A DNA stretch of 64,000 nt from the NCBI GenBank assembly GCA_965209095.1, contig OZ242381.1, positions 4,126,630 to 4,190,629 on the forward strand. The letters are read 5' to 3'. The DNA comes from Candidatus Poribacteria bacterium. Its GTDB lineage: Bacteria > Poribacteria > WGA-4E > WGA-3G. Positions 16,095-54,168 of the stretch are shown here, piece by piece (position 1 is the stretch's first letter; the number at the start of each line of letters is the position of its first letter). The position numbers and the translations under genes were made by a program. The notes below the pieces were generated by a model. It had not been told where the DNA came from. It saw nothing but the letters and a program-made list of their open reading frames with translations, and ran no database searches.

Positions 16095-19000
16095 ATGCAT
16101 AAGGTTATTGTTCGTCATGTTTCCCGAATAAGTTTCTGCTTTCTCGTAGGATTCCTCTGTCTACTTGTCTTTGAGTTGCAGGCAGAACCTTGGAAATGTG
16201 GTACTCCGTTATTATGTGATAACATCACACATGATCATAACATAGAAATCTCAAATGACAATAGTATCTTTACGTTGCCTGCTGCCCCAGCGAAAATAGG
16301 ACAATCCAATCGGTTCTTTGTTCACATACCTGAAGCATCAATTCAAGCTACATGTGTTGCTATTGGAAAGTATTGTTATATCTTTGTTGAAGACACTTAT
16401 GGAGATATGCTGACAGATGCCCAGGCAAAAGATGTCGCAGATACTTTTGATACAGAAATATATCCGAAAGTCCACCACTGGATCGGATCGGAAACACAAC
16501 CAGGTTTGGATCGTGACATCAGAATCACTATATTATTCCATGATGTTGGTATGAATCAATCTGGACAAGATTATGGGGGATATTTTTCTCCTGTGGATCT
16601 TCACGCTACACATCCGACAAGTAATAGACGCGATATAGTCTATATGGATATTTTTCAGTATAAACAACGTAGTAGACTTACTTTCACTAGCAGCCTTGCC
16701 CATGAATTCGCACATTTGATAAACTGGTATCAGAACGGGGGAAAATCGGATCAACGTTGGTTGGAAGAAGGTATTGCATCATTTGTTGAATGGGGTATTT
16801 ATGGATATGTTCATACGTTGTTTGTAGATGGTTATCTTGCAGCCCCAAGTATGTCATTGACAACTGCTAACACCTTTGACACATATTACGGTGCAGCGTT
16901 TATGTTTCTGCTTTACCTATATGAGAACCATGGGGGGCTCAATTTCATCAGGAAACTTGCAGATGAAGATAATCTCGGTTTACCAGCGATTGATACATCT
17001 TTGGATGATAGAGATAATTTAGTATCTATCTTTCTCAATTGGGCAACTGCAAATTGGTTGAACAACACAAAATATGGAAAGAGTCTAAGCTACCAACACC
17101 TACCAAATCGTAGAGTTACTTATCGCACTCCAAGGGTGATTCAGTACCCAAAGACTTCAGGGAACATACAAATAGACAGTTGGGGTGTCCAATACGTACT
17201 CTTTCAAAACTTACCAACAAAATTTGAATTGACCTTGAATTCAAACAGTGATTCATATCTATATGCAAATATTGCCTATTTTGCTCCAAACAGAAACCGA
17301 CCAATTATCAGATCTGTTCTACCTATATTAGATGTAAACGCATTAGATAATAAACGCATTAACAAAATACAGATAGGCAATCTAAGCAATGATGGTGAAA
17401 TTTTATTGATTATTACTTCTGAATACCCGCAAACTTTTCATTATACTGCAAAACAAGATGAGGATGTTACTACAATTGATATTGAAAAACTGATTCAGAC
17501 ACAAATACCCAATTTTCATCATTCTATTGATAGTTGGTTTCCACGTGAAGAAACCTATGCTCCCACAAGAAGAACACAACCAGTATTTAAAGACCACAAT
17601 TCATTAATTCCATCTGATCCGACTATTGAACTTGATCCTGTTTCCCAAATACATCTCTCCAGTAACTACAACGAGATTATGATAAAGGATAATATCGCTT
17701 ATGTAACCAGTGATTGGGGTTTAGAGATATTTTCATTGAATCCTATACCAATTCCAATCGGAGAAATTGCCACGCCAGGACAGGCACAAGCCGTAACAAT
17801 TGATGACGAACATGTCTATGTAGCAGACGGTAAATCTGGCGTTCTGATGATCAGTGTTAATCCTCCAACAGCACCACGTATTATAAAATCTTTGGGAGGA
17901 TTTCATGAGGCAAGAGACGTACACTTTGCAGATGATAGATTATATGCACTTGATACCCTCCGTGGTCTATTGATCTTCAATAGGCAGGATTTAGAAAATA
18001 ACGAAAATCCACAACCACGACAGTCATTTAAAACTGATGGTACCCCTTTGAAGGTTTCAACAAACGAAGATGGCAAAATATATCTTAGTGACAATGCAAG
18101 GGGGCTATACATTTTGACACCTGACAACCTTGGCGGATTCACTATATCGAACACCGTTCCATTATTAATTCCAGATTTTCAGATATTAGGAAGATATATT
18201 CTTGCTGCATCTGGTGATCTCCAAGTTGTAAATATAGCCAATATCTTTGATACGAATGTCATTTCTCGTGCTAATACCCCGGGTAGTGTCACGGCACTTA
18301 GTTTCTTTCAAGGATTACTCTACCTAACCGATAAACAGTCAGGACTACAAATTGTAAATGTGGATAGTGCGCAAACTCCTCGTGTAATCTCATCACATCC
18401 AACGATAGGTAATGCTGAAGATATTGCTCTCCGTTTTTCGGCAGAAGACAAAAAGACTTATGCACATATTGCTGATGGAATCGGAGGAATACAAACAATA
18501 GATGTGACACACCCCGACAATCCGATATGGGAAAACCACTATAATGCCAAAGGGGTTGCTTCAGCACTTGATGTGATAAACGATGGACAAAACACAACCA
18601 TTGCTATTGCAAACGGGACTGGTGGATTAAAAATCGTAGAATTAACAGATCCATTCATTGGCAGAATAGTGAACGAGATACGTTCTATTCCAGGGCAACA
18701 AGGTGTATTGTGTGTTAAAATTCTCAACCAATTTGCTTTTGTAGGTTCTGACACAGGATTGACAGTTACTAATATCATAACAGGTGAAATTCAGAGACAT
18801 ATTCGGACGCGACAACCTGTGTGGAGTATAGAATTAATCAAGAATCATGCATATCTATGTACAAAATCATTAATTGTAGTAGACATATCTATTCCGGAAC
18901 AGAGTCGTATCGTTGCACAACGAACACTGCCTGGTACAGCGTATAGAATTTCCTACGACGAATCTCATGCTTATGTTGCAGCACTTGAAGGAGGTGTACA

Positions 19001-19733
19001 GATATTTGATATAACAGAGCCTAACCAACCACGTCATATTTCATCTTTCTTAACTGATGGTTCAGCCACAAATGTCGTGATTAATAGTCATAGACTGTTT
19101 GTATTGGATAATCGTCATGGTGTGATTCAGATAGATACTCATAATCCTGAACAATTGACTATAGTTAGCGAATACGGTGATACACAATTGCCTATAGCTG
19201 CTGCAATAAGTGATAATCATCTATATCTACTTGATATTGATACATTGCAGATTATTGATACTCGTACAATGACACGTTTGAGTCGATATTCACAATTTCA
19301 TTCTCCTACAGATATTGTAGCAACTGGTTCTGCACTCTATGTAACTGATAAACATCAACTCAAGATTTTTCGTGTTAACACTCAACAGAATAATCTTGCT
19401 GTAGAAGAATATCCTCATAACTATTTAAAACAGACAACACAAATGTCCTTAACACCCAAAAACGAACTTCTACAGAATCATCCGAATCCATTTAACCCAG
19501 ACACCTGGATTCCCTACACACTCGCAAAACCCACAGATGTGTCTCTCTCAATTTATGATTCTTATGGTCGTCTAATCCTACAAAAATCGTTAGGATTTCA
19601 ATTCTCAGGTAAACATACTACCTATTGGGATGGGAATAATACTATTGGCGAACCTGTTGCAAGTGGGATATACTTTTATCAATTAACTGCCGATGGTTTT
19701 TCGTCTACACTTAAAATGGTTATACAAAGGTAG
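16095..19733 (+). CDS. Large secreted multidomain protein with a gluzincin-type HExxH metalloprotease motif, LVIVD beta-propeller repeats and a T9SS-type C-terminal sorting domain.
   Basis: Signal peptide present. HEFAHLINW is followed by EEG about 20 aa downstream. More than twelve G-[LV]-x-I-[VFI]-[DN]-[VI] units preceding a short P-rich turn (the LVIVD pattern). The C-terminus reads NHPNPFNPDTWIPY...IYD..G..............WDG.......ASGIYFYQL. Confidence 0.7.
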   Translation: MHKVIVRHVSRISFCFLVGFLCLLVFELQAEPWKCGTPLLCDNITHDHNIEISNDNSIFTLPAAPAKIGQSNRFFVHIPEASIQATCVAIGKYCYIFVEDTYGDMLTDAQAKDVADTFDTEIYPKVHHWIGSETQPGLDRDIRITILFHDVGMNQSGQDYGGYFSPVDLHATHPTSNRRDIVYMDIFQYKQRSRLTFTSSLAHEFAHLINWYQNGGKSDQRWLEEGIASFVEWGIYGYVHTLFVDGYLAAPSMSLTTANTFDTYYGAAFMFLLYLYENHGGLNFIRKLADEDNLGLPAIDTSLDDRDNLVSIFLNWATANWLNNTKYGKSLSYQHLPNRRVTYRTPRVIQYPKTSGNIQIDSWGVQYVLFQNLPTKFELTLNSNSDSYLYANIAYFAPNRNRPIIRSVLPILDVNALDNKRINKIQIGNLSNDGEILLIITSEYPQTFHYTAKQDEDVTTIDIEKLIQTQIPNFHHSIDSWFPREETYAPTRRTQPVFKDHNSLIPSDPTIELDPVSQIHLSSNYNEIMIKDNIAYVTSDWGLEIFSLNPIPIPIGEIATPGQAQAVTIDDEHVYVADGKSGVLMISVNPPTAPRIIKSLGGFHEARDVHFADDRLYALDTLRGLLIFNRQDLENNENPQPRQSFKTDGTPLKVSTNEDGKIYLSDNARGLYILTPDNLGGFTISNTVPLLIPDFQILGRYILAASGDLQVVNIANIFDTNVISRANTPGSVTALSFFQGLLYLTDKQSGLQIVNVDSAQTPRVISSHPTIGNAEDIALRFSAEDKKTYAHIADGIGGIQTIDVTHPDNPIWENHYNAKGVASALDVINDGQNTTIAIANGTGGLKIVELTDPFIGRIVNEIRSIPGQQGVLCVKILNQFAFVGSDTGLTVTNIITGEIQRHIRTRQPVWSIELIKNHAYLCTKSLIVVDISIPEQSRIVAQRTLPGTAYRISYDESHAYVAALEGGVQIFDITEPNQPRHISSFLTDGSATNVVINSHRLFVLDNRHGVIQIDTHNPEQLTIVSEYGDTQLPIAAAISDNHLYLLDIDTLQIIDTRTMTRLSRYSQFHSPTDIVATGSALYVTDKHQLKIFRVNTQQNNLAVEEYPHNYLKQTTQMSLTPKNELLQNHPNPFNPDTWIPYTLAKPTDVSLSIYDSYGRLILQKSLGFQFSGKHTTYWDGNNTIGEPVASGIYFYQLTADGFSSTLKMVIQR

Positions 19734-29158: not shown

Positions 29159-30778
29159 TTGATGATTTATAAAAACATGTTTATTTCCATATTATCTGTT
29201 GTGCTTATTGTGGGTTTTGTTATTTCAGTGCATGGGCACGGAGACGGTTCTACGCTATTAGAAGATGTCAATAACGATGGAACAGTCAACATACAAGACC
29301 TTGTGTTGGTGGCAAATTCGTTTGGACAACCAGGTGATCGGACTTCTGCAACAAATCCTGATGTTAATCGAGATGGTTTTGTTGATATTCTTGACCTTGT
29401 TCGTGTGGCAAACCGATTTGGTGAGACTGAACAGGGAGATAATTCGGCATATCATGACATTCAGGATCACATTTTTGACAAAAGTTGTGCAAATAGTGCA
29501 TGTCATGCACCGCCAACAAATTCTGCAGATTTAAACCTAACTTATGGACAGTCATATCAGGATTTGGTGAACCGGATCCCTCGTAATTCTGCAGCGGCAG
29601 CGGCGGGTATGAAACTCATTGATCCTGACAACCCTGACAACAGTTTCTTATTGACAAAGTTAATGAATATAGAAAATCAAGAGTTTGGGTCGCGCATGCC
29701 ATTTCAGATGGGGCAACTCCATAATGGCAAAATAGAAGCACTTCGAACATGGATTTCAGCTGGTGCACCACAAGAGGGTAAATTGGCAGGTATTGGTGAC
29801 TTAGGTGTCCTTCGTGATCCAGAGGAAAAATTCAATCCACCTAAACCGCCTGCTCCAGGAGAAGGGTATCAACTCTATTTACCACCCTTCAAAATTGAAC
29901 CTGGTACTGAACGAGAAGTCTACTTTGCAACGCAAATCTTGGATGACAACGGTGAACCTATAGAAGAAGACATTTTCATCAATAGAGTTGAGATTTTCTA
30001 TCCATCGGGTAGCCATCACTTCATCATATATCGACTCACAGAAGAAGGGCTTGCAAATGGCATTCTGGATAGAGGGGTAGATACGACAATTGGTGTTGAT
30101 CCAACACACGAATTCAGAGAACTTGATCCGGATGATCCACAAGTTTTGGGTAATTTCGGTATTGATAGGTTGTTTGTAGTAGGAACACAAACCGATGACA
30201 CAACCTTTGCATTTCCTGATAATGTCGCTCTCCGATTACCGGGAAATACGGTCTTTGACCTGAATTCTCACTATATCAACCTACTTGGTGATGAAACGTT
30301 GATCGGTGAAACTTATGTCAATATCTATACTATCCCTGAAGAAGATGTAAAATACGAAGCAATAGAGATATTTGTTTCCAATCGAGCAATCAACGTGCCT
30401 CCCAATACTACACGTGTCGCAAAATTAACTTGGTATGTTGAAGATGAGTTAGAACGTCGAGGACATGATCCTGACACGGAATTGCATGTATTTCTACTTA
30501 CATCACACATGCATAGACACGGTGAATTGTTTGAGATTTTTCAAGACTCAACAGGTGAGTTATTACACCGTAGTATAGCTTATGACGATGCCCCAATTAC
30601 ACTATTTCCCTCACCGATAATTTTAAGTGTGGACGACGGTATAAGTTTCCAATGCACCCATAACAATTACGATATAGATGGACCGCTTCAATTCGGACTT
30701 ACCTCCGAAGATGAGATGTGTATTATCTTCGGTTATTATTTCATTCCAATAGAAAAGGCTGGAGAAACAATCAAATAG
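29159..30778 (+). CDS. Secreted protein combining a dockerin repeat pair, a PSCyt1-like (planctomycete cytochrome-c-like) domain and a PHM/DBH-like copper type II monooxygenase domain.
   Basis: Signal peptide present. Dockerin repeats DVNNDGTVNIQDLVLVANSFG and DVNRDGFVDILDLVRVANRFG. The PSCyt1-like segment reads CANSACH...LNL...L..G...LIDPDNPDNSFLLTKL....RMP.....L....IEALRTWISAGA. The C-terminal 300 aa carries an HH pair at residues 286-287, H-x-F-x4-H-M-H-x2-G at 443-455 and Met520 in DEMC about 70 aa later. Confidence 0.6.
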   Translation: MMIYKNMFISILSVVLIVGFVISVHGHGDGSTLLEDVNNDGTVNIQDLVLVANSFGQPGDRTSATNPDVNRDGFVDILDLVRVANRFGETEQGDNSAYHDIQDHIFDKSCANSACHAPPTNSADLNLTYGQSYQDLVNRIPRNSAAAAAGMKLIDPDNPDNSFLLTKLMNIENQEFGSRMPFQMGQLHNGKIEALRTWISAGAPQEGKLAGIGDLGVLRDPEEKFNPPKPPAPGEGYQLYLPPFKIEPGTEREVYFATQILDDNGEPIEEDIFINRVEIFYPSGSHHFIIYRLTEEGLANGILDRGVDTTIGVDPTHEFRELDPDDPQVLGNFGIDRLFVVGTQTDDTTFAFPDNVALRLPGNTVFDLNSHYINLLGDETLIGETYVNIYTIPEEDVKYEAIEIFVSNRAINVPPNTTRVAKLTWYVEDELERRGHDPDTELHVFLLTSHMHRHGELFEIFQDSTGELLHRSIAYDDAPITLFPSPIILSVDDGISFQCTHNNYDIDGPLQFGLTSEDEMCIIFGYYFIPIEKAGETIK

Positions 30779-32773: not shown

Positions 32774-34702
32774 ATGTCAACACATGGTCATCAAACCTCA
32801 ACGAAGCATATCACAGGACGTTCACTTCTCTTAGGTGTCCTTCTCATACCAATCAATGTTTACTGGATGACAATCGTTGAGGTGAAATACTACTCTCTTG
32901 ACGGATCATGCCTTCCACTGTTTATTCAGCCTGTCTTTATCATGTTTGTGTGTGCTGTTGCCAATGTCTCGTTGAAACGTATAGCACCACAATATATGCT
33001 GCGTCAAGGTGAGTTATTGACTGTCTATATTATGGTGGCAATTTCCTGCACATTTGCTGGACACGACGCTATGCAGAATATGTTTGGCAGTATTGCTCAT
33101 CCATTCCGTTTTGCAACGGAAGAGAATGAATGGCAGACACTGTTTTTTCGGTATCTTCCATCTTGGCTTACCGTGTCAGATCCTCTGAGTCTACAAGGAT
33201 TTTATGAAGGTGATGCCAGTTTCTATACCAGCCATAATTTTTCTGTGTGGTTAAAACCGTTATTATATTGGGGACTCTTTTTTCTTACGATGATGTTTAT
33301 GATGCTATGCATCAACACACTTGTCCGCAAACGGTGGGCAGAACAGGAGAAATTGGCTTATCCGATCATACAACTTCCATTGCATTTATCAGAAGCAGGT
33401 GGCATTAGTCTGTTGAAGAATAGAATGATGTGGATAGGATTTACGATAGCAGTGATTATTGGTGTCATAAACGGGATCAATTATCTGTTTCCACAGTTTC
33501 CACTGATCCCGTATATCAAGCGGACAGCAGTTTTTCAAGACATCTTCACAGAACGACCGTGGAGTGCGATACGAGGGACTCGTATCTCCATATATCCGTT
33601 TGCTGTTGGGTTGGCATTTTTTCTACCACTGGATCTATCATTTTCGTGTTGGTTTTTCTTTGTTGTACGGTTAGCAGAATTTGTGGTTGCGGCTGCACTT
33701 GGCACCCGATATTTTCCTGCCTTAAATGAACAGGCTTACGGAGCTTGGGTTGCGCTATTCGTTCTTGCAGTGTGGGTAACTCGTAGTCATTTGAAAGGTG
33801 TATTGAAAAAGGCACTGTGGTTCAGTTCTGATATAGATGACTCAAATGAACCGATGTCATATCGTGCTGCGATGTTAGGTATTATCGGATCGCTTATTGC
33901 ACTTGGCATCTTTGCCAATATTGCAGGAATGGCTTTATGGATTGCAGGTATATTCTTCGGTGTATATTTTCTTCTATCATTTGCGATCACTCGTGTTCGC
34001 GCTGAACTCGGCACCCCACATGAAATCTATTATGTCAACCCACACGATATGTTGGCTACTGTAGGTGGAACGCGTCAGTTTGATACAAGCAGTCTTACAA
34101 TCATGTCACTGTTTTATTGGTTCAATCGAGGCTATCGTAATCACCCTATGCCGAATCAGATTGAAGCATTTAAGTTGGCAGAGTCAACTGGGATGGGGAA
34201 CCGTCGGTTGTGGGTTGCGATGCTCATTGCGATTGTGGTTGGTATTATAGCAACTTTTTGGGCGAATCTTGACATTACATTCCGTAATGGGGCAGTAGCA
34301 AAGGCAGGTGGATTCAAGGGATGGGTCGGTAGAGAGTCATTTGGTAGACTTCAACGTTGGTTACATAATCCATCTGAACCGAATGTTGTTGGTATTGGGT
34401 TTATGGGGATTGGTGCGTTATTGACATTTGTTATGATGTATATGCGGATGCATTTCTTGTGGTGGCCATTCCATCCTGCTGGTTATGCACTTGCGATTAG
34501 TTTTGCGATGGATTATTTCTGGTTTGCGTTCTTTGTCGCATGGTTCTTGAAGTTATTGATATTACGTCATGGGGGGCTGAAGTTACATCGTAAAGTTGCA
34601 CCTCTATTCTTAGGTTTGATTTTGGGCGATTATGTTATTGGTAGTGTTTGGGCTATTATAGGACCTGCAACAGGGTTGCGGACTTACAAGATATTCATCT
34701 AA
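32774..34702 (+). CDS. Polytopic membrane protein of unknown family. Paralog of 140..2083, lying 11 bp downstream of the Hcy-methyltransferase/MTHFR gene.
   Basis: 642 aa with about 14 TM segments. Shares many conserved blocks with the 140..2083 protein. Confidence 0.75.
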   Translation: MSTHGHQTSTKHITGRSLLLGVLLIPINVYWMTIVEVKYYSLDGSCLPLFIQPVFIMFVCAVANVSLKRIAPQYMLRQGELLTVYIMVAISCTFAGHDAMQNMFGSIAHPFRFATEENEWQTLFFRYLPSWLTVSDPLSLQGFYEGDASFYTSHNFSVWLKPLLYWGLFFLTMMFMMLCINTLVRKRWAEQEKLAYPIIQLPLHLSEAGGISLLKNRMMWIGFTIAVIIGVINGINYLFPQFPLIPYIKRTAVFQDIFTERPWSAIRGTRISIYPFAVGLAFFLPLDLSFSCWFFFVVRLAEFVVAAALGTRYFPALNEQAYGAWVALFVLAVWVTRSHLKGVLKKALWFSSDIDDSNEPMSYRAAMLGIIGSLIALGIFANIAGMALWIAGIFFGVYFLLSFAITRVRAELGTPHEIYYVNPHDMLATVGGTRQFDTSSLTIMSLFYWFNRGYRNHPMPNQIEAFKLAESTGMGNRRLWVAMLIAIVVGIIATFWANLDITFRNGAVAKAGGFKGWVGRESFGRLQRWLHNPSEPNVVGIGFMGIGALLTFVMMYMRMHFLWWPFHPAGYALAISFAMDYFWFAFFVAWFLKLLILRHGGLKLHRKVAPLFLGLILGDYVIGSVWAIIGPATGLRTYKIFI

Positions 34703-36954
34703 TCTGGTCGTGTTTTAATTTTCATTTGCAGTTCACCTGTTTCAACATTCCATTTATGAAACCATCTTGTATCAATATCAGTACTTATTAGACTTTCACC
34801 ACTTGGTAAGAACTCATAAGCATCTATCGGTCCTCCAACCGCTTCAATAGTAGCTTTGAGTTTTCCCGTATTTAAATCCCATACGTGAAGTAAAACAGGA
34901 TCTCCTTTGCTAATTAAAGTATTCCCATCTGGAGACATAATGATCTGCGAGTGACTATATCCGTTCTTCTCAAGTATTGAACGGAGTGTGCCAGTATCTG
35001 TTTCCCATAACCGAATAGTTTTGTCAAGACTGCCGCTAACCAAAGTTTTTCCATTTTTTGTAAATTCAAGGTAATGGATCCAAGATGTATGTCCTTCAAG
35101 AGTCGCACTTTGTTTAGTATCAAGATTATATAACCATATTGTGTCATCCGAACTTGCACTTGCAAGCTTATTTCCATTTTCTGTAAACCTTATGAGATTG
35201 ATCTTGCCTGTATGTCCTTCATAAGTTGCTATTGGTTGTGCGTTTTGCACCGATGATATGTCCCAAAGCAGAATCTTGTTATCATGACATGCACTTGCAA
35301 GTAATTTTCCATTGGAAGATAATTCCATTGTATGAACACCTGCGGTGTGTTCTTTGAGTGTTACCTTATGTTCACCTGTTTTCGTGTCCCACAGACGTAT
35401 TGTGCTGTCACGGCTTGCACTGAACAGCGTTTTGCCATCTGGTGAAAATGCAAGGTCATCAATCCAAGACGTATGTCCATTGAGTGTTGTCTTGAGTTTT
35501 CCATTTCTTGTGTTCCATAGTCGAATCTGACTGTTATTCCAACCGTTTCCTGTAGCGATCGTTTTGGCATCAGGAGATAGTGCAACAGAATATATTTGTG
35601 CGAATTCGTCTTTAATTGTCACTCTGTGTTTACCAGAATCTGCATTCCATAGAGCGATGTCGTTGTTACTTATACTAACAAAGGTTTTTCCATCCTTGGC
35701 AAAAAAAGTAGATTTAACAGGAGACTGATAGTAGACTGGTGTTTCATGGACTTCACTGAGTTTCGTTCCTTTACGTGGAATTTTCCCGATATTAGTATTA
35801 CCTGATAGTATTTTATTTAGAGGCGGTTGCAGGAAGACAATCACGTATTGCCATCCAGCAAAGGAATCTTCAACGATATAGGTTACAGTGCTGACATCTG
35901 GTGAAAATTTAATTGGAGCACTATTCCGAATCCGATCATCCGAGATCGTTCTCTTATGCTTTCCAGTTTTTACATCCCATATACGTATACTATTCCAATG
36001 TGTATCACTCATACTTGCTAACATATTCCCGTCGGGTGAAAAATCTAAAGTAGTAACTCCCGCAACAAATATATAAGGTTTTGAAAGTGTTTTTATGTGT
36101 TGTGCCTTACTTACATCCCACAGCAAAATTTCTTGGTAACTGCCACCAGCAAGAATGTTACCGTCAGGTGAAAAAGCGAGAGATTCAACACTGCCTCTAT
36201 GTCCGGTTAGAGAGTTTAGTCTTTTTCCTGTGTTTGGATTCCATAAGATTATTTCCTGAAAACCCGCACTTGCAAGGACCTTTCCATCTGGAGAAAATTC
36301 GGCATCATAAACTTCGTCTGTATGTCCTTCCAGAGTATGTTTTAGATTACCTGTGTTAATATCCCACAACGCAATTCTCTGAATTCCGGTTAATGCGATA
36401 GTATTACCGTCTGGTGAAAACGCGGTCAAATTGCTCGCAGATACTTTGATAGACTTTAGTAAATGACCTGTTTGGACATCCCAAACCCTTATCATATCAT
36501 CAGATCCTTCACTCGCGATTTTTTTACTGTCAGGAGAAAATAGAATGGAGTAAGTTACATCTGTTGGTTCAAATATTGATAGTATTTCTTCACCATTGAT
36601 TGGATTCCATAATTGAATTTCATCATTTCGGTTATTCACACTTGCTAATATATTTCCATCATGAGAAAACTCAACCATATCGTACCATCCACCATAGGGA
36701 TGTGTATCGTCTTTGATGGTTAACTTTTTTTCATAAGTGTGTGCGTCAAATAACCATATTTCATCTGTAGCTGCTATAGCAAATCGGTTTCCATCTGGAG
36801 AATACTCGAAATCCTTTATTGCAGAAGATTCCATGATACTTAGAGCATCAACTGTTATAGGAAGATGCATAATGACATAGAAGAATGAACATATTGAGAT
36901 TATGAAAACAAGATATGAGTTTAGAATGTATTGGTTGAATTTAATGCCTTTCAT
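34699..36954 (-). CDS. WD40-repeat beta-propeller protein with an N-terminal TM/signal anchor (751 aa).
   Basis: Many WD units of the type FSPDG..LAS.S.D..I.LWD. An N-terminal hydrophobic helix is present. The stop overlaps the stop of the convergent membrane gene. Confidence 0.8.
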   Translation of the reverse strand: MKGIKFNQYILNSYLVFIISICSFFYVIMHLPITVDALSIMESSAIKDFEYSPDGNRFAIAATDEIWLFDAHTYEKKLTIKDDTHPYGGWYDMVEFSHDGNILASVNNRNDEIQLWNPINGEEILSIFEPTDVTYSILFSPDSKKIASEGSDDMIRVWDVQTGHLLKSIKVSASNLTAFSPDGNTIALTGIQRIALWDINTGNLKHTLEGHTDEVYDAEFSPDGKVLASAGFQEIILWNPNTGKRLNSLTGHRGSVESLAFSPDGNILAGGSYQEILLWDVSKAQHIKTLSKPYIFVAGVTTLDFSPDGNMLASMSDTHWNSIRIWDVKTGKHKRTISDDRIRNSAPIKFSPDVSTVTYIVEDSFAGWQYVIVFLQPPLNKILSGNTNIGKIPRKGTKLSEVHETPVYYQSPVKSTFFAKDGKTFVSISNNDIALWNADSGKHRVTIKDEFAQIYSVALSPDAKTIATGNGWNNSQIRLWNTRNGKLKTTLNGHTSWIDDLAFSPDGKTLFSASRDSTIRLWDTKTGEHKVTLKEHTAGVHTMELSSNGKLLASACHDNKILLWDISSVQNAQPIATYEGHTGKINLIRFTENGNKLASASSDDTIWLYNLDTKQSATLEGHTSWIHYLEFTKNGKTLVSGSLDKTIRLWETDTGTLRSILEKNGYSHSQIIMSPDGNTLISKGDPVLLHVWDLNTGKLKATIEAVGGPIDAYEFLPSGESLISTDIDTRWFHKWNVETGELQMKIKTRPD

Positions 36955-37076
36955 TTTATATCTCCGTGAGTGATATGTTTTTCATAGTAGATCTGTTCTA
37001 TAAAAACGTGAGACCAGTGTATTTGTCGTAGGTTAGGTTAAGGCACGAAACCTAATATTCCTTACTGAATATTGTT

Positions 37077-37237
37077 CGGGGTTAGAAACCCCTCCTACAA
37101 GAGAGTATCAATCGGGGTTAGAAACCCCTCCAACAAGAGTATCAATCGGGGTTAGAAACCCCTCCAACAAGAGTATCAATCGGGGTTAGAAACCCCTCCA
37201 ACAAGAGTATCAATCGGGGTTAGAAACCCCTCCAATA
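37077..37237. repeat. Tandem array of about 4.7 copies of a 34-bp unit (CGGGGTTAGAAACCCCTCCAACAAGAGTATCAAT). Each unit contains the palindrome GGGGTTagaAACCCC.
   Basis: Units start at 37077 (36 bp), 37113, 37147, 37181 and 37215 (partial). Copies are near-identical with no unique spacers. The array abuts the stop codon of the 711-aa WD40 gene and lies upstream of the 751-aa WD40 gene. Confidence 0.85.
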
Positions 37238-37239
37238 GG

Positions 37240-39375
37240 TTATCTCCTTGGTTGTAGATTAGGATTGTCCAATTTCCAAAGTAGAATAGTACTGCCAACA
37301 CTTGCAATAGTTTTTTCATCTTTAGAAACTATAAATGTATCAATATAATCTGGTTGTGCGTCAAGGGTCAATTTTGGTTCCCACGTTTCTGTGTTCAAAA
37401 ACTCGATCATGTTTCCACTTATACTTACTAATGTATTTCTATCTGGGTAAAATGAAACTGGTTGATACCCAAATAGTGTTTTCTTATACGCTCCAGTCTT
37501 TGTATCCCATAACAGAGTATGTCCAAAATAACTTGTGGTTGCTACGGTTTCACCATCAGGAAAAAAGACTATTGAACTGACACTTTCTGTATGCCCTATA
37601 AGTGTAGCAATGAGTTCAAAAGTCTCTGTATTCCATAATCGTACTGTTTCGTCAAGACTTGCACTTGCTAAAATACTTTTATCGGGTGAGAAGACAATAA
37701 AATCCACACCACCAGTATGTCCTTTCAGCGTTGTTATATGTTCACCAGTATTGACATTCCATATTGGAATACGACCACCTCCCAGACCTATCAACATTTG
37801 ACTATCTGAAAAAAATTCAACGGAATTAACGTTGTAGTCCTTGATATCCATTGTCAATTTATGATCAGCTGTGCCTACATTCCAGAGTTCAAGTGTGGGT
37901 TCAGAACTTGTAGCACGACTGACTAAAGTTTTGCCATCAGGCGAAAAATGTAGTAACTGTAATCTACCTTTCTTACCTGTAGAAATTATCCTTTCTCCTT
38001 CACCCGTTTTTGTGTTCCACAATTGTATAATTGGAGGATCATTCCAATTATTTACCCTATTAATTCCAATTGCTACCATAATTCCATCTGAAGATATTGA
38101 AGCAACATCACCTGAATAGGTTCTAATTAGCTTTTGCGTATTTATATCCCAGATCTGTATATGGTTCAGATACCAACAGGCAATTGCATTTCCATCGTGA
38201 ATGATCATTGCATTAGATTGTACTGAGATATGTTTTTCATTGATTGGCGTATGTTCTCCTGTAGTAATATCCCATAGTCCCAGATCATTCGCGAGTTTTT
38301 TGCCGTCAGGTGAAAACACTAATGTGTTGTTTTCTGATTTGATATCAAGGAGCGTTTTTTCAATTTCTCTTGTATTCATATCCCATATATTGATTTTGTC
38401 TTGTTCGTAGCTTGCATATTTTTTCCAATTTGGAGAGATAAATATGCGTCCTTTATGTTCCCATGTAGGATTGCCGGTCCTAACATCCCACAATTTGGAG
38501 TTATTTTTGTGTATTGTTACTATCGTCCTATTGTCTGGAGAAAAAGCAATGAAATTGGTGTCATATAGACCAACATTAAATTTCTCTTTGAATGTTCTGA
38601 TATTTTTACCAGATTTCGTGTCCCATAACCGGAGCGTTCCATCATAGGTAAGACTAACGAGCATACGGTTATCTCGTGAAAAAGCAACAGAATAGACTAC
38701 GTCTTTATAGTTGAGAGGCTTTGATGGCATATTGAGTTTGTGAATCTGTTGACCGGTTTCTGCATTCCATATTCGAGATGTACCATCATCACTACCACTT
38801 GCCAACATACTATTGTCTGGTGAGAAGGAAATCGCTGTTACATCACTTGTATGTCCTTTAATGTTATTCATGTTCTCACCAGTGTTTGTATTCCACAATT
38901 TAATAGTCCTATCCTTGCTTGCAGTTGCAATTGTATTGCCATCAGATGCATACACAATACTCGTAATATCTTTTGTATGACCTTTTAGTGTTGTTCTGAG
39001 ATTTGCTTGGATTGGGTCATAAGATATATCCCATAATTCAACAGCCTTATCCGATGGATCATTAGCAGCAAACATCGTTCCATCAGGTGAAAAGACAATG
39101 TTTGACACATTTATAGGCAGTAGCCTAATTTCTTTGTATGTCGTTGCGTCATAAATCCATAAACCTATCGTACTTGGTATTATTATCTTTGTGCTATCTG
39201 GAGAAAAAACAATTTTATCTGTGATGTAGCCCTTTCCAATGCGTGCAATTGCACCTTCAGGTAATTCCCATTTTGAATATTCTTGGGTAAAACCGATTGA
39301 GAGTATTTGCATCATTGAGAGGATGATTGTGATAAAGTATTTCATGGATTTTAATTTACCTAATACAAAATTCAA
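37240..39375 (-). CDS. Secreted WD40-repeat beta-propeller protein (711 aa) with signal peptide.
   Basis: The N-terminal signal is MKYFITIILSMMQILS. Numerous WD40 units are present (GHT..V.S..FSPD...LAS.S.D.T.RLWN). Confidence 0.8.
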   Translation of the reverse strand: MNFVLGKLKSMKYFITIILSMMQILSIGFTQEYSKWELPEGAIARIGKGYITDKIVFSPDSTKIIIPSTIGLWIYDATTYKEIRLLPINVSNIVFSPDGTMFAANDPSDKAVELWDISYDPIQANLRTTLKGHTKDITSIVYASDGNTIATASKDRTIKLWNTNTGENMNNIKGHTSDVTAISFSPDNSMLASGSDDGTSRIWNAETGQQIHKLNMPSKPLNYKDVVYSVAFSRDNRMLVSLTYDGTLRLWDTKSGKNIRTFKEKFNVGLYDTNFIAFSPDNRTIVTIHKNNSKLWDVRTGNPTWEHKGRIFISPNWKKYASYEQDKINIWDMNTREIEKTLLDIKSENNTLVFSPDGKKLANDLGLWDITTGEHTPINEKHISVQSNAMIIHDGNAIACWYLNHIQIWDINTQKLIRTYSGDVASISSDGIMVAIGINRVNNWNDPPIIQLWNTKTGEGERIISTGKKGRLQLLHFSPDGKTLVSRATSSEPTLELWNVGTADHKLTMDIKDYNVNSVEFFSDSQMLIGLGGGRIPIWNVNTGEHITTLKGHTGGVDFIVFSPDKSILASASLDETVRLWNTETFELIATLIGHTESVSSIVFFPDGETVATTSYFGHTLLWDTKTGAYKKTLFGYQPVSFYPDRNTLVSISGNMIEFLNTETWEPKLTLDAQPDYIDTFIVSKDEKTIASVGSTILLWKLDNPNLQPRR

Positions 39376-39533
39376 TTAATGATTTACCTTTGAGATGAAA
39401 TGTAAAATGCGTAATGAATTGTCAAAAATAACACTACAAGTTGACACAGTTTGTTGTTTTCTGATAATCTGTTAAACATAATGCTTCACCTTTACTAACT
39501 CATAGACAAATTATATTCAAGGAGTTTCAATTT

Positions 39534-40547
39534 ATGAAAATTACAGATATTGAATACCGAACCGTTTCAATCCCATTTATACCTGCCATTGAGGAACATT
39601 CAGGTATGGTGTATCCGACTACATTAGTTTGGGTGCACACCGATGAAGGAATTACAGGTTTAGGTGAAAGTAATGCTGTTCATAGCGATATTACAGAACA
39701 AGCAGAACAGATTGCTGAAAGATACGTTGGCAAGAACTTCTGGGAATTTGATATTGCCGATGAAGGCTTCACATTCCAATCAGCGTTTTACGATATTGCC
39801 GGACAAGCATTAGGTGTACCTGCACATAAGTTAATGGGTCGTCTACATCGTGAAAGTGTTGAACTTGCCTATTGGTCACCTCCGATGCCACCTGAAGCTA
39901 CTGCTGCAGAGGCGGAACGTGCTGCGAACTTAGGTTTCCGTGTTCATAAACTCAAAGCGCGAAAAGCAACTATTGTTGAAACTGCAAGGTTAATTAAAGA
40001 AGCATGTGGACCTGATTTTGGAATACGCGTTGACCCAAACACAGAATTTGGTGATCTGGAAACAGGTATCCGTTTAGCAGATGAACTGATTCCTTATAAC
40101 ATTGAAGTCTATGAAGACCCTATTCAATTTGAAGATCTATCGTGGTATGCTGAACTTAGGAAACGGACTGATGTACCAGTTGCCAGACATATTGGTGGTC
40201 TTCAAGAGATACTGCGTAACATCCAGGCTGATGCCGTTGATGCGATAAACACACAAGGAAATTTATCTGGTTTACGCAAAAGTGCTGCGATAGCAGAAGC
40301 TGCGGAAATACCAATTTGGGTACAATGCTTTGCATTCGGTTGTTGCGTTGCTTCCACTTTCGCTGCCCATATTGTTTCTACTATCCCCAATTGTTCCATG
40401 CCGATTGATGAACTGCCTCATATTCGTGTTGATGATCTGTCTGGTGGTAGTATGAACCTAAAGAACGGTGCAATACACTTGTCGGATGAACCGGGTTTAG
40501 GACTTCAATTGGATATGGATGCCGTTGAACGTTATAGGATAAAATAG
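39534..40547 (+). CDS. Enolase-superfamily enzyme (mandelate racemase / muconate lactonizing enzyme family).
   Basis: The N-terminal capping domain reads MKITDIEYRTVSIPF...GITGLGES. Barrel-domain metal-ligand spacing is consistent with the family (DPN..F, YEDP). RBS AAGGAG is upstream. Confidence 0.7.
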   Translation: MKITDIEYRTVSIPFIPAIEEHSGMVYPTTLVWVHTDEGITGLGESNAVHSDITEQAEQIAERYVGKNFWEFDIADEGFTFQSAFYDIAGQALGVPAHKLMGRLHRESVELAYWSPPMPPEATAAEAERAANLGFRVHKLKARKATIVETARLIKEACGPDFGIRVDPNTEFGDLETGIRLADELIPYNIEVYEDPIQFEDLSWYAELRKRTDVPVARHIGGLQEILRNIQADAVDAINTQGNLSGLRKSAAIAEAAEIPIWVQCFAFGCCVASTFAAHIVSTIPNCSMPIDELPHIRVDDLSGGSMNLKNGAIHLSDEPGLGLQLDMDAVERYRIK

Positions 40548-41237: not shown

Positions 41238-41990
41238 AACATATACAATATGATGCCATTTACCAAAGGATGCTCCCGATGCTGCTATTAGGTTTCGTGT
41301 TCTTTTAGTTTTATGAATACGCGCATTATCCATTATGACGAGATGGTTTTCTCCGAGTTGTGGACATACTTGACTTTCAAGCCATGCATTGAAACACGCC
41401 GCATTACAACTCCCTTTCAAATAGAGTAGGTGTTGTAAATGCTTGATCAATACGGGCAGCTAATAAAGTTGTTGTACGGGTTCTTTGACTTGATATGAGG
41501 TCAAAAACAGGTTCCCCTTTTGGGGCATACCCAAAACGCCTAAAACTTTCTGATCGAAACCCGCTTTCATCAATAAAAACTAATGTTTTTCCGCTGCGAG
41601 TTGTTCACAATAGGTTTTCGCTGTTGATCACATCGCTCCTTATAACCGAATGTCTTTTTTTCTCGAGATGCCGAGTTTCCGCAGCCCATACCAGATACAA
41701 TAGGGTGAGACACCGAAATGTGCAGCACGTTCAACGTTAGTTTGATCAGGAAAATCTTGGACATGTTGTTTGAGTGCGCTATAGTCAATACACCTGGGAC
41801 CTCGGGGTCCCGTCTTTTGCGGGGTAAGTGGGTCTGGTGCTTTTAGCCATTTGTAGATAATATCCCGCGAGATATTATACCGCTTTGCAGCTTCTACTTT
41901 GCTACCGCCACCTTCTACAAAATCAAGGACACGCTTACGTAAATCTTTCGAATATGACATAATGCCAGATATTATATCATAAATATAAAA
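41172..41990 (-). mobile_element. Degraded IS630/Tc1-mariner family transposase gene. It is frameshifted near 41600-41650 and 3'-truncated by the family-2 MITE.
   Basis: N-terminal HTH ORF (MSYSKDLRKRVLDFVEGGGS...), the first-Asp block KTLVFIDESGF in another frame, and VIMDNARIHK matching the second-Asp block of IS630 transposases. The usual C-terminal PPYSPDLNPIE block is missing. Confidence 0.6.
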
Positions 41991-42013
41991 AAATGTATAA
42001 TTATTTATATTCT

Positions 42014-42400
42014 TTACCATAGTATCTGCAGCACATCATCTAAATCAACAGACATATCGTTGACATTTGTGTCTTGTTCTCCTTGCGTTGTTGTCTGGGT
42101 AAAAGCAAGTTGTGTAAGACTGGTAGCGACAAAACTGAGTTGTGCGAAACGATTCAATCCCTGACGATTTCGGAGTTGATAGGTATCAAAACCGAAGTTC
42201 TGTTTGGCATCCCGTAAAGCAGTTTCAATCTGCCACCGATTTCTATAGTGTTGGATCAACGCCTCTTTGGGACGCTCTAAATCAGAGGTAAATAAACGAA
42301 AATACTGATATGTTTTAGAGCTTTTCTGCCGAGTGCGTCCGACAATGATTGAAATTGTTATACTTGAAGAGACTTCTATATTCTGATAACATGCTTTCAA
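42014..42400 (-). pseudogene. C-terminal fragment of a DDE transposase (IS4/IS701-like, YRNRWQIETALRDAKQ block). The N-terminal part is absent.
   Basis: 128-aa ORF. The R-W-x-I-E motif is typical of the third catalytic residue region in IS4-type transposases. No upstream continuation is present in the window. Confidence 0.45.
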
Positions 42401-49557: not shown

Positions 49558-50874
49558 CAGGGTTATTTAGTTTTCGGTATTTTAGTCGTTTTTTATCACA
49601 AACGTTAATAATTTTAGATACGCAGAAATAGCGTGAAAAATCACGCTATTTCTGCTATACTTCACCTTAAAAATCTTAACCCTTTGAGGTGAAAAATGAC
49701 AGAGAATAACTCTCGCCACTTGTTAGATAGATTAGCAGAAATCGAAGACCCGCGCAACGAAAAAGGAAAACGACATCCGTTGAATTCAATCCTTGGCCTT
49801 AACATTATTGGTTTTATGACTGGACATAAAGGATATACATCCACCGCAAAGTGGGCACGATCTCAACCAGATCTCGTCCAAGCACTCGGTTTTACACACG
49901 AGAAATCACCTTGTTCCGCAACGATACATAATGTTCTAAAAATATTAGATGCGGATACTGTTGAAAAGACATTTACAAACTGGGTAGAAGATGTTTGTCC
50001 AAGTCGGTCTGATTTAGCAGGATGTCTTGACGCAGTCGCTATAGACGGTAAAACGATGCGTGCCTCCAAAAAAAGTGGTGCGGCAATAAGCCATTTACTC
50101 TCCGTTGTTTCTCATGAGTTAGGGGTTACCCTGACACAACAAGGTATCAGGGACAAAACCAACGAAATACCGATTTCAACAGAGATCCTCAAAAACTTTG
50201 ATGTGAGTGGTAAAGTCATCACAACAGATGCGCTTTTGACACAGAAAACTTTCTGCCAAGAAATCATAGAGGGTGATGGAGACTATGTGCTCCCTGTCAA
50301 AAACAACCACCCCGACCTTTGCGATGATATCCAAAAACTCTTTCAAGATGTTCCTGACACACCTTCACAAGACGCTACACATCCTCTATTGGGAGACCCT
50401 ATTGACACTCACGAGACTTATGAAAAATCACATGGTAGAATTGAGACAAGATGCCTAAAAGCAAGCACAAGTCTCAACGCATATCTGGACTGGCCAGGGA
50501 TAGAACAGGTGATCCAATATCGTTATATTCACGAAAACCCAAATACAGGAGAAGAAACAACCAAAGTCACCTATGGTATTACAAGTCTGACACCCGAAGC
50601 AGCTACTGCCGAACGCTTACTTGAACTACGCCGTGGGCATTGGTCTATAGAGAACAAATCGCATTGGATCCGAGATACTCAACTTGGAGAAGACGCATCG
50701 TCTGTCCGATGCGGTGCTATTCCGCAGGTTATGGCTGCTTTGCGAAATGCAGCATTAGCAGTATTGAGATTTGATGGCGTTACAAGTATAGCTGATAAAA
50801 TAAAATATTATGCTTCAAAACCTTTACTCGCAGTTAACTTGATAACTGAATGTTTTTAAAACTAAATAACCCTG
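49558..50874 (+). mobile_element. Intact ISAs1-family insertion sequence (1317 bp) with 15-bp terminal inverted repeats and a 9-bp target-site duplication.
   Basis: Left inverted repeat CAGGGTTATTTAGTT (49558..49572). Right inverted repeat AACTAAATAACCCTG (50860..50874). Direct repeat TACCCGACC at 49549..49557 and 50875..50883. Confidence 0.75.
49696..50859 (+). CDS. ISAs1-family (H-repeat-associated, DDE_Tnp_1-like) transposase.
   Basis: 387 aa. VAIDGKTMRAS, TTDALLTQK and RRGHWSIENKSHWIRD are characteristic ISAs1 transposase blocks. Confidence 0.8.
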   Translation: MTENNSRHLLDRLAEIEDPRNEKGKRHPLNSILGLNIIGFMTGHKGYTSTAKWARSQPDLVQALGFTHEKSPCSATIHNVLKILDADTVEKTFTNWVEDVCPSRSDLAGCLDAVAIDGKTMRASKKSGAAISHLLSVVSHELGVTLTQQGIRDKTNEIPISTEILKNFDVSGKVITTDALLTQKTFCQEIIEGDGDYVLPVKNNHPDLCDDIQKLFQDVPDTPSQDATHPLLGDPIDTHETYEKSHGRIETRCLKASTSLNAYLDWPGIEQVIQYRYIHENPNTGEETTKVTYGITSLTPEAATAERLLELRRGHWSIENKSHWIRDTQLGEDASSVRCGAIPQVMAALRNAALAVLRFDGVTSIADKIKYYASKPLLAVNLITECF

Positions 50875-51974: not shown

Positions 51975-53822
51975 TTAATCAGAGAAACGAAGTTCTTCAT
52001 CAGGAATTGGTATGTTAAATTCTGCCTTATCTACTTGCATTTGGAAAAATTGTCCTGACATTTCGGTTTCAGGATCATAACCTACACCGTAAGTTGCAGA
52101 TTTTGGAAACCAAATTTCTGGAGTAAACTGTTCAATGTTAAATGTATGTTTAATTCGACTAATTACTTCTTCAGGTTCTAAGAGGATACGTTTTCCATCA
52201 GGACCCACGAGTACTGCTCGAGACATACCCTTTGAGGTTTTTAAACTTTGAGTTGGTCTATATCCTTTCGCCGGATCTATCCATATCTGTTGAATAGCAG
52301 AATTGTCTTTGCCATGAATTCGTTGTAAGGTAATTAAGTATTGAGGAACTTTATTGACCATAACCTGCTCTACTTTTATGGGATTATAATAATTCCGGGT
52401 TAGGAAAGTAAAACTAAATATGCTCGGATGCCATCCCCAACTGAGTGGACTATAATCATATATGAATATTGATTTATCCACTGGTTTTGGATGCTGTACC
52501 CATAACTCATCCTCATTTTTCTCTCTTATCAACATCTCTTTTTTAGCAATCTGAAACTGGTAGTGTTTTTCTTCCCAATCTGGAAGTAGAAAACCAACGA
52601 AATCCATCTTCCGACGAAATTTGACATCATACAAATGACGTGTTCCTTGAAAAGTATAGGTTATCTGGTAAATTCCTACTTCTTCATATTTGGCTTTTTC
52701 ATCTACCGGTTTTTGCAGTAAGAAATTCAGAAAACGGATGAATAGGTTCTTCTGTGTTTTAGGTGGCACATAATCATTCTGCTTAATTTGAAATTCGATT
52801 TTCCCACTTTGCAATTTACCATTATATGCAATTACTTCTTTCGTGATTTTTTCCAAAAGATCAGCCGATTCTTTGGATAGAACTACATCTGACGGTGGTG
52901 CTTGAACTGTGGCATCTGTCCTATCATCCTCTTGATTTCCCACACCATTTGTATTACCATCTTCATCTGATTGACCTAACTGATTACGTTTATCTGGTTC
53001 CTCTTTTAAATCCAGGAATAGATCAGTATCAACTAATTCAACCGTAGTCTCTGATGTAGAATCCAAACTATACGGTTTCTGATAACTTCTTAGATTCTGT
53101 GCACCAATCACTATCAGCAAGACAAAAATAATGGCTGATGCAGCTGATATTGCTAACGGTATAAAAGGTCTATTGACCGATGGTGTTATTGGAATTATAC
53201 GGTTTACCTCTTTCAGGATGTTTTCTGTCATTTGTGTCGGTAGTTGGAAACTATTCAAGTTTTCTTGAATCATTGCTTCTTCCTTCTTTAATCGGTTACG
53301 AGCACGGTGGAGTCGACTCCGTACCGTATTGGGAGACATTCCCAAAAACTTACCAATCTCTTCACAGGACATTTCTGCGATATAATACAGATTTACGACA
53401 GTGCGGTCACTCTCTTGCAGTGTACTGAGCAACTTCTGAACGGCTGTACGTCGTTTTTCTTTTGCCGCATCTTCGCGTTGTTGAGTCATATATTCTGAAT
53501 AGCATACCTCCTCTAATTCAACGGGATCTGTCGCTTCTAACGATTGCGGTTGTGGTGATTTCTTTCGGTGCCACGCAATACATTTACGGTTGGTAATCAC
53601 ATAGAGCCATCCCGCGAAACGATTATGGTCTGTGAGCGTAGAGAGCTTTTGGAATGCTGTAAAGAACGCATCCTGTGTAATCTCTTGAGCAATGTGGAAA
53701 TCACCAATTTTCTGCCAGGCTAACGCGTGTACCTGTTTTTGGTATTTTTCCACAAGTGCAGCAAACGCTTTCTGGTCACCCTCTAAAGTTTGTTGAATCA
53801 GGTCAGAGTCATCGTAAGTCAT
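51975..53822 (-). CDS. ECF sigma factor fused through one TM helix to an extracytoplasmic domain of about 370 aa (paralog 1; no BNR repeats).
   Basis: Sigma70 region 2 (DLIQQTLEGDQKAFAALVEKYQKQVHALAW...WLYVITNRK) and region 4 (EMSCEEIGKFLGMSPNTVRSRLHRARNRL). A TM helix follows at about residue 240 (FIPLAISAASAIIFVLLIVIGA). Start set at MTYDDSD; the ORF track gives 53888. Confidence 0.75.
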   Translation of the reverse strand: MTYDDSDLIQQTLEGDQKAFAALVEKYQKQVHALAWQKIGDFHIAQEITQDAFFTAFQKLSTLTDHNRFAGWLYVITNRKCIAWHRKKSPQPQSLEATDPVELEEVCYSEYMTQQREDAAKEKRRTAVQKLLSTLQESDRTVVNLYYIAEMSCEEIGKFLGMSPNTVRSRLHRARNRLKKEEAMIQENLNSFQLPTQMTENILKEVNRIIPITPSVNRPFIPLAISAASAIIFVLLIVIGAQNLRSYQKPYSLDSTSETTVELVDTDLFLDLKEEPDKRNQLGQSDEDGNTNGVGNQEDDRTDATVQAPPSDVVLSKESADLLEKITKEVIAYNGKLQSGKIEFQIKQNDYVPPKTQKNLFIRFLNFLLQKPVDEKAKYEEVGIYQITYTFQGTRHLYDVKFRRKMDFVGFLLPDWEEKHYQFQIAKKEMLIREKNEDELWVQHPKPVDKSIFIYDYSPLSWGWHPSIFSFTFLTRNYYNPIKVEQVMVNKVPQYLITLQRIHGKDNSAIQQIWIDPAKGYRPTQSLKTSKGMSRAVLVGPDGKRILLEPEEVISRIKHTFNIEQFTPEIWFPKSATYGVGYDPETEMSGQFFQMQVDKAEFNIPIPDEELRFSD

Positions 53823-54017
53823 CTGATACCTCAATAACGAATTAGTCTTTTTAATATATAGACGCGATTTTGAGGAAAAGAATTGCATTTTTTTGAAAAA
53901 AGCGTATTCTCAAAGAAATGTATGGGTTTTAGTTCAGAGAAGTCAGAAGTTGTATGTAGGGTAGTATGAAATGGTATTACATACCAGGTAGGTGAATATT
54001 GAACTATTTATTATTCA

Positions 54018-54160
54018 AACCCAAGTTGCTACCTATAAGTTTTAAGACCTGGAAAGACCTTTTTTAATGAAAAAACTGATAATTAGCCAATATTTTGTAG
54101 CGTAAACTTCCAGTTTGCGCCTCTTATGACACAATCTGGCAGATTGTGCTACAAGGTAGC
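54018..54160. repeat. Family-2 MITE-like element (143 bp) between ECF-fusion genes 1 and 2.
   Basis: Ends AACCCAAGTTGCTACCTATAAG and CTACAAGGTAGCAACTTGAGTT, with the internal cacaatctggcagattgtg palindrome. Confidence 0.6.
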
Positions 54161-54168
54161 AACTTGAG

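Follow-up and report, generated by a model that had tools for sequence, protein, structure and literature searches.

What do the large exported WD40 beta-propeller proteins of Poribacteria do outside the cytoplasm, and how are they sorted once there? The question is raised by a stretch of 64,000 nucleotides of a Candidatus Poribacteria bacterium (contig OZ242381.1; hereafter the window), in which a preliminary description had reported a cluster of three large WD40 genes, here called WD1, WD2 and WD3, and an LVIVD-repeat protein with a C-terminal domain of the same kind as that of WD3. The three open reading frames (ORFs) were present as claimed, all on the minus strand (Table 1). WD1 and WD2 are an adjacent pair, for which the word cluster is apt, but WD3 lies 22 kb off. 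Judging from the sequences and structure models described here, WD1, WD2 and WD3 probably represent a poribacterial family of Sec-exported, double seven-bladed WD40 propellers that serve as diversifying, extracytoplasmic ligand-binding modules.

Previous work showed that Poribacteria, which are abundant sponge symbionts, are very rich in WD40 domains, and that these can be accompanied by a signal peptide and a TIGR04183 domain (Kamke et al. 2014, PMC3909097). Table S9 of that report counts 133 WD40 genes, of which 31% encode a signal peptide and 24% transmembrane helices, and Table S8 lists genes with a signal peptide and FlgD_ig, WD40 and TIGR04183 domains, e.g., POR3G_00803. WD3 comes from the same phylum and has the same architecture, i.e., signal peptide, WD40 and FlgD_ig/TIGR04183. 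A 905-aa homologue bears the NCBI name 'T9SS type A sorting domain-containing protein [Candidatus Poribacteria bacterium]'. Secreted WD40 proteins had been called unusual in bacteria; within Poribacteria they are common and published, so that the observation of exported WD40 proteins with TIGR04183 domains is correct and largely known. The 2014 report differs from the present analysis in that it gave domain counts only. New beyond it, and not found in its main text, are a gene slot holding a variable WD40 array, raised ratios of nonsynonymous to synonymous substitution rates (dN/dS), hypervariable blade positions, and a fusion of sigma factor, WD40 propellers and C-terminal domain. In the survey of PMC8163846, WD40 domains were not enriched in sponge metagenome-assembled genomes (MAGs) compared to seawater MAGs.

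The domain calls made earlier for these proteins, namely WD40, LVIVD, and a C-terminal domain (CTD) of type IX secretion system (T9SS) or FlgD-Ig type, were correct, with profile scores over the curated cut-offs. For WD40 (PF00400, Pfam cut-off 27 bits), the Pfam profile search gave 245.7, 188.9 and 524.6 bits for WD1, WD2 and WD3, respectively. Counting of blade anchors placed the blades of WD1 in two propeller regions, aa ~50-360 and ~410-711, and gave ~14 blades for WD2. The true start of WD2 is probably the ATG at 39345, giving a protein of 701 aa, because orthologues begin at the corresponding Met (MKY../MRK..). WD3 consists of a signal peptide (aa 1-24), the motif QDYTRWELPEGA, blades with 14 SPD anchors (aa ~36-610), a disordered linker (aa 614-633) and the CTD. 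In the AlphaFold2 model of WD3 (predicted local distance difference test score, pLDDT, 87.2), the blade region contains 56 strands within aa 36-610, i.e., 14 four-stranded blades, and the predicted structure is that of two closed 7-bladed propellers in which the pLDDT is mostly >90.

WD3 is highly self-similar, unlike WD1 and WD2. Its gene is a tandem array with a period of 126 bp, 12.4 copies and 77% identity (Tandem Repeats Finder, TRF), and two of the units are shortened, to 37 and 39 aa. WD units identical over 126 bp had been reported for this gene, but 126 bp is the period only: the ten canonical 126-bp units are 58-90% identical pairwise at the DNA level, no two are identical, and the longest exact repeat in the gene is 73 nt. 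The possibility had also been raised that the repeat region is collapsed or mis-assembled. Were it such an artefact, of collapsed or chimeric repeats, the number and the sequence of the units would be unreliable. The resemblance between units (up to 90% identity, with exact matches up to 73 nt) is in keeping with such an artefact, as are the two shortened units, the many public homologues that are called as fragments, and the frameshifted and truncated copy at L081, one of the related loci (L numbers) compared here. The reading frame of WD3 is nevertheless without interruption, and it encodes exactly the 14 blades that two closed and confidently modelled propellers would need. Further, an independent orthologue from another assembly, at L082, is 70% identical to WD3 and likewise has 14 units, and since the units all differ, no collapse could pass unnoticed with reads longer than ~75 nt. 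With no sign of collapse or mis-assembly in the intact ORF, we hold an artefact here to be very improbable. The gene also stands out by its G+C content of 47%; the window has 39.6%, and the genes of WD1, WD2 and the LVIVD protein have 36-38%. Recent horizontal transfer was considered as the source and not favoured, as the L082 and L081 copies exceed their own contigs likewise, and the high G+C looks like a property of the gene family, not of the window genome alone. Amino-acid composition, gene conversion and transfer are possible causes of the excess in WD3-type genes.

WD1, WD2 and WD3 all begin with a short basic stretch, after which comes a hydrophobic segment. With a stroke marking the putative cleavage site, the signal of WD3 is MKNKPFFIPTVLLTIFIFTLNAFA/QD, which is kept in the L082 orthologue, and that of WD2 is MKYFITIILSMMQILSIGFT/QE. 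WD1 has a longer hydrophobic segment that ends ...FFYVIMHLPITVDA/LS (LPITVDA/LS), and both the segment and the VDA/LS site are kept in the orthologues of L003, L014 and L040. WD2 carries the motif QEYSKWELPEGAIARIGKG immediately after its signal peptide, and the WD2 orthologues have in common a signal peptide and the sequence Y[ST]KWELPEGA. In general, the signal-like N-termini are kept in orthologues and paralogues that diverge greatly elsewhere. AlphaFold2 placed a low-confidence helix at residues 7-18 of WD3. When WD40 ORFs of >=300 aa were counted in the window and 82 related loci, 45/50 had a signal-like N-terminus and 23/50 had the CTD. The earlier claim of signal peptides on all three proteins stands to the extent that their N-termini are hydrophobic, Sec-like and conserved, as judged by inspection and conservation.

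WD1 and WD2 fill a fixed slot between the DUF6785 and enolase-superfamily genes, and across Poribacteria the number of tandem WD40 genes in this slot varies between 0 and at least 5. The DUF6785 gene is convergent with WD1, and the two stops overlap by 4 bp. Relatives of the DUF6785 protein with 78-95% identity occur in 80 genomes, of which 79 are labelled Poribacteria and one is an 'uncultured bacterium' MAG; the guess that the DNA came from a symbiont fits this source phylum of sponge symbionts. The slot is empty, with the flanks adjacent, in L001, L007, L008, L010, L012 and L035. It holds one 190-aa remnant in L002, one gene in L046, two genes in the window and L031, four in L003, and five or more, with the array running off the locus, in L014, L016 and L040. 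The array genes lie on one strand and encode proteins of 680-775 aa, all with a signal peptide and none with the CTD, and most have the sequence [QD][ED]Y.[KR]W.LP[EK][GD]A..R[LI]G.G directly after the signal; the tandem array starts with WD1. Closest to the window are L001 and L002 (DUF6785 94-95% identical). The L002 remnant has a distal-type array N-terminus (signal peptide and WTDDYRQWDLPEGA) joined to a WD1 C-terminus (...VETGKLLMKIKTRPD), and this chimera is what a deletion by recombination between paralogues would be expected to leave. The intergenic DNA between WD2 and WD1 contains a 34-bp unit, GGAGGGGTTTCTAACCCCGATTGATACTCTTGTT, in 4.6 head-to-tail copies with 97% matches (TRF), each with a GGGGTT-tct-AACCCC hairpin with a 6-bp stem; 5 copies are found in the window vs 0 expected. 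The repeat is absent from the 82 related loci and is therefore not a conserved part of the array. Promoter and terminator scans of 34500..39700 gave background levels.

Sequence change in the array genes is also rapid. Identity to the L003 counterparts is 65-67% for WD1 and WD2 and 85-96% for the flanking genes, and dN/dS is 0.27 for WD1 and 0.28 for WD2 vs 0.02-0.07 for four flanking genes, a 4- to 14-fold difference in ratios that are rough because dS, at ~0.8-1.2, is near saturation. For WD3, the variation could be placed within the blade. In the unit GHTxxVxSVAFSPDGKTLASGSxDxTIRLWD..., columns 4, 5, 7, 23 and 25 are hypervariable, with 1.54 nonsynonymous vs 0.36 synonymous differences per codon pair; at the framework columns the values are 0.32 and 0.24, respectively. 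WD3 and the L082 orthologue are 23% identical at the hypervariable columns (column 28 added) and 79% identical elsewhere. In the WD3 model, the hypervariable columns fall in the D-A loop just before strand A, at the start of strand A, and in the B-C turn. By general WD40 geometry these elements make up the top, ligand-binding face of the propeller, and the variation in WD3, both within the gene and between orthologues, is concentrated at five or six positions per blade that would be expected on this face.

Internally conserved WD40 arrays are not peculiar to Poribacteria. Fungal HET-E/NWD proteins have highly internally conserved WD40 arrays of the STAND (signal transduction ATPases with numerous domains) or NLR (NOD-like receptor) type, and the WD part of WD3 finds its nearest WD40 relatives in NACHT/NB-ARC-WD40 proteins of the cyanobacteria Nostoc, Fischerella and Tolypothrix (45-58% identity). 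WD3 is like the STAND/NLR arrays in its near-identical repeats and in having variation at a few expected top-face positions, but it has no NACHT/NB-ARC NTPase or effector domain and has instead a signal peptide and the CTD, so that it would work outside the cytoplasm and not as an intracellular sensor. An NLR-type immune sensor was also rejected for the set as a whole, there being no NTPase domain in WD1, WD2 or WD3.

WD3-type genes have been found in broken form. At L081, which is syntenic with window positions 52-64 kb, the WD3 orthologue (9630..10378) is split over two reading frames and retains only some two WD units, the final unit and the CTD; Type_ISP_C restriction-enzyme-like fragments lie upstream of this remnant. 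At L082 (8039..10354), an in-frame stop (...ETDD-stop-KDVDEP...) separates the WD40 part from the CTD, so that gene callers split it into a WD40 protein of 651 aa and an 'orphan' CTD of 117 aa. A search with the CTD gave mostly proteins of 93-207 aa; stand-alone CTD proteins were considered and rejected, as those matches that were read were tails of longer genes starting at an internal Met (e.g., 'MLLWDYRS...'), and are taken as gene-call fragments. The broken copies at L081 and L082 are either real pseudogenes or sequencing errors. The broken WD3 copies and the variable slot together fit a WD40 family with rapid birth and death.

How might WD3 be sorted after export? A T9SS-type CTD had been claimed for both WD3 and the LVIVD protein, and the TIGR04183 scores of 28.8 and 36.0, respectively, bear this out (cut-off 23). 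The last 118 residues of WD3, searched alone, scored 48.6 with FlgD_ig, 34.3 with Por_Secre_tail (PF18962, cut-off 27) and 28.7 with CHU_C. The LVIVD protein scored 30.2 with LVIVD (cut-off 20.2) and 34.6 with FlgD_ig, while its PF18962 score, only 22.1-25.0, was under the cut-off. The CTDs of 75 poribacterial sequences are 56-91% identical to the WD3 CTD and have 19 invariant residues; for the LVIVD protein of the window the value is 47%. The consensus reads ...NYPNPFNPETWIPY...IYD..G..VR.LDLGHQ.AG.Y...RAAYWDG.N..GE.VASGIYFYQLQAD....LRKM.ILK, and the domain is borne by WD40, LVIVD and dockerin-containing proteins. AlphaFold2 models it as a beta-sandwich with pLDDT >90 at residues 19-118 of the segment. 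In Foldseek searches FlgD came first (E 1.6e-4; the sequence match to FlgD has E 4.6e-6), and PorU 6za2 (TM 0.60, root mean square deviation 3.2), PorZ 5m11, the RgpB CTD 7pq4, and the substrate CTDs 8glk_D, 8gl6_D and 8gl8_D bound in the SprA-PorV translocon were also matched. Because FlgD ranks first, the fold, as modelled, is not specific to T9SS. K113 in the tail ...LRKMLILQ, five residues from the end, is >=90% conserved in the 75 poribacterial CTDs. Near the C-terminus of type A CTDs stands a Lys that is important for function and almost invariant (PMC10994853), and aligned by eye K113 appears to correspond to it. In sum, the WD3 domain has the sequence and predicted-fold features of a T9SS type A CTD for which it was tested.

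Comparison with the T9SS type A cargo of Bacteroidota, such as P. gingivalis RgpB and F. johnsoniae RemA/NucA, points in the same direction, with exceptions. Like these proteins, WD3 has a Sec signal and a C-terminal beta-sandwich of ~80-90 aa, and its CTD passes TIGR04183 and PF18962, has the conserved near-C-terminal Lys, and has an RgpB-like predicted fold. Poribacteria, however, are not Bacteroidota; the cargo of WD3 is a WD40 propeller whereas that of Bacteroidota is an enzyme or adhesin; and the WD3 CTD scores higher with FlgD_ig than with Por_Secre_tail. The possibility was weighed that the CTD is a general FlgD-type Ig-like domain for binding or envelope tethering and not an export signal, that the WD40 proteins are periplasmic or associated with the inner membrane, and that the phylum has no T9SS-like pathway. 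FlgD being the best match in both sequence and fold would agree with this, as would the 2014 report, which found no T9SS structural genes in single-cell genomes of Poribacteria (PMC3909097), though those genomes were incomplete. The domain also ends P0195 (L083 2111..5155), a 1014-aa protein with extracytoplasmic function (ECF) sigma regions 2 and 4, a transmembrane helix anchoring it in the inner membrane, 14 WD40 units and the same CTD; identity between P0195 and WD3 is 54% over 96% of the length. Against a non-export role are the curated TIGR04183 and PF18962 cut-offs that were passed, the conserved Lys, and the position of the domain at the extreme C-terminus in every case examined. Further, the domain is found on exported cargo that is otherwise unrelated (WD40, LVIVD, dockerin-containing) and is 60-92% conserved across cargo types while the cargo diverges, as would be expected of a sorting tag for a common machinery. 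We regard a domain with no part in export as improbable. Among the genes of the window there is no T9SS machinery gene or PorP/SprF-like neighbour; the 242-aa gene downstream of WD3 encodes a lipoprotein with no family match, and the 554-aa gene after the LVIVD gene has no family match and looks cytoplasmic. A literature search on T9SS in Poribacteria turned up only PMC3909097, and neither T9SS nor gliding is mentioned in the supplement tables of PMC8546597.

P0195 also bears on what the propellers do. A serious rival to the reading of WD1, WD2 and WD3 as host-interaction or adhesion proteins is that exported WD40 propellers are sensory or regulatory modules of ECF sigma signalling: they would be free-standing counterparts of the periplasmic sensor domain of ECF sigma-transmembrane-propeller fusions and act as co-receptors or decoys. 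WD3 is on the same strand as, and just upstream of, the lipoprotein gene and three ECF sigma-transmembrane-BNR/Sortilin fusions (51975..60159), and this neighbourhood of WD3, lipoprotein and ECF sigma genes recurs in L081. P0195 joins ECF sigma, transmembrane helix, WD40 units and CTD in one chain, and P0228 is a further sigma-WD40 fusion. Planctomycetes have ECF sigma factors with C-terminal transmembrane and WD40 extensions (ECF01-Gob). WD3 is like P0195 and P0228 in having extracytoplasmic WD40 propellers of the same repeat type, but WD1, WD2 and WD3 differ from them in having a cleavable-type signal peptide and no transmembrane anchor, and a profile search found neither sigma nor anti-sigma domains in the three. 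Nor is the WD1/WD2 array beside sigma genes; the sigma fusions of the window use BNR/Sortilin propellers and not WD40, and the L082 orthologue of WD3 is found among unrelated metabolic genes. A dedicated role in sigma signalling therefore seems to us unlikely, if somewhat less so than a CTD without a role in export, and it overlaps with the reading of WD1, WD2 and WD3 as extracytoplasmic ligand-binding modules, since a sensor would bind its ligand outside the cytoplasm too.

As a family of exported ligand-binding propellers, WD1, WD2 and WD3 would work as follows. Sec would export the double WD40 propellers across the inner membrane. By virtue of the CTD, and as homology suggests, WD3 and the LVIVD-repeat protein would next take a T9SS-like route across the outer membrane or to its surface, and WD1 and WD2 may remain periplasmic or leave by another route. 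The ligands of the propeller top faces would be external and variable, with molecules of the sponge matrix or cell surface, particles and phages as candidates. Copy number and sequence may vary through unequal recombination, both among paralogues and among repeats. Several points weigh against this account. The signal peptides were called by inspection and conservation and not with a trained predictor, and the match of the CTD to the FlgD Ig-like domain, in both sequence and fold, is no worse than that to T9SS CTDs, in a phylum in whose single-cell genomes T9SS structural genes had not been found in 2014. The membrane anchoring of P0195 is hard to reconcile with simple secretion: P0195 would have to be cleaved, or else be docked to the outer membrane by its CTD, unless the CTD has another role. 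The dN/dS ratios, rough as they are, lie below 1 and are also compatible with relaxed constraint.

Table 1. Positions of the WD40 genes and other features in the 64,000-nucleotide window.
Feature	Position	Strand	Description
WD1	34699..36954	-	751 aa; exported WD40 protein, ~14 degenerate blades, without CTD
WD2	37240..39375	-	711 aa from TTG; exported WD40 protein, ~14 blades, without CTD
WD3	61757..63949	-	730 aa; signal peptide, 14 WD40 blades, linker, CTD
WD3 CTD	61760..62044	-	aa ~636-730; T9SS type A / FlgD-Ig-like beta-sandwich (predicted) ending ...LRKMLILQ
LVIVD-repeat protein	16095..19733	+	1212 aa; CTD at aa ~1130-1211
34-bp tandem repeat, intergenic	37076..37235	-	between WD2 stop and WD1 start
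DUF6785/DUF6784 membrane protein	32774..34702	+	left flank of WD40 slot; Pfam 570 bits; multi-pass
DUF6785+DUF6784 membrane protein	140..2083	-	multi-pass; paralogue of 32774..34702, the two being very highly conserved across Poribacteria (78-95%)
Enolase-superfamily (MR_MLE_C) gene	39534..40547	+	right flank of WD40 slot; Pfam
ECF sigma fusion, first of three consecutive	51975..53888	-	637 aa; regions 2 and 4, long C-terminal extension
ECF sigma fusion, second	54169..57060	-	963 aa; regions 2 and 4, long C-terminal extension with BNR/Sortilin-type beta-propellers
ECF sigma fusion, third	57331..60159	-	942 aa; regions 2 and 4, long C-terminal extension with BNR/Sortilin-type beta-propellers
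Lipoprotein gene	60727..61455		242 aa; beside WD3 and ECF sigma fusions
Transposase remnants	41640..42400	-	IS701/IS4-like fragments, 126 and 128 aa
DDE_Tnp_1 transposase	49696..50859	+	intact, 387 aa
Selenocysteine synthase SelA gene	6003..7550	+	
Dockerin type I + copper type II monooxygenase C-terminal-like protein	29159..30778	+	539 aa; dockerin N-terminal

The gene content of the rest of the window fits an origin in Poribacteria, with many PhyH genes, one FGE-sulfatase gene, a planctomycete-type cytochrome, FG-GAP/ASPIC and ECF sigma fusions. The exact sequences of WD3 and WD1 had no match among the public assemblies looked up. The transposase remnants and the intact transposase are placed between the WD40 slot and the ECF sigma region. 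The dockerin/copper monooxygenase gene adjoins a MetH-MTHFR fusion gene, an arrangement that is kept in nearly all 80 loci. The presence of the SelA gene makes the use of selenocysteine by the organism probable, and in-frame TGA codons need careful reading.

The question since 2014 has been how a phylum outside the Bacteroidota sorts many T9SS-tailed proteins, and what recognises the tag. One answer, which we offer as a long shot, is that the single conserved T9SS-type CTD on WD40, LVIVD, dockerin and ECF sigma-WD40 proteins marks an undescribed pathway of envelope sorting or trans-envelope tethering, with the variable WD40 arrays as its diversifying recognition repertoire; this would follow if closed genomes confirm that T9SS structural genes are absent. 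Closed poribacterial chromosomes, e.g., OZ243938.1 and OY282386.1, make the question of the T9SS machinery directly testable. As for the WD40 genes themselves, with copy number in the slot varying between 0 and at least 5, raised dN/dS, and hypervariability at the expected binding-face positions, they behave like a fast-turnover recognition repertoire, and this repertoire provides a handle on what the dominant symbionts of sponges recognise.

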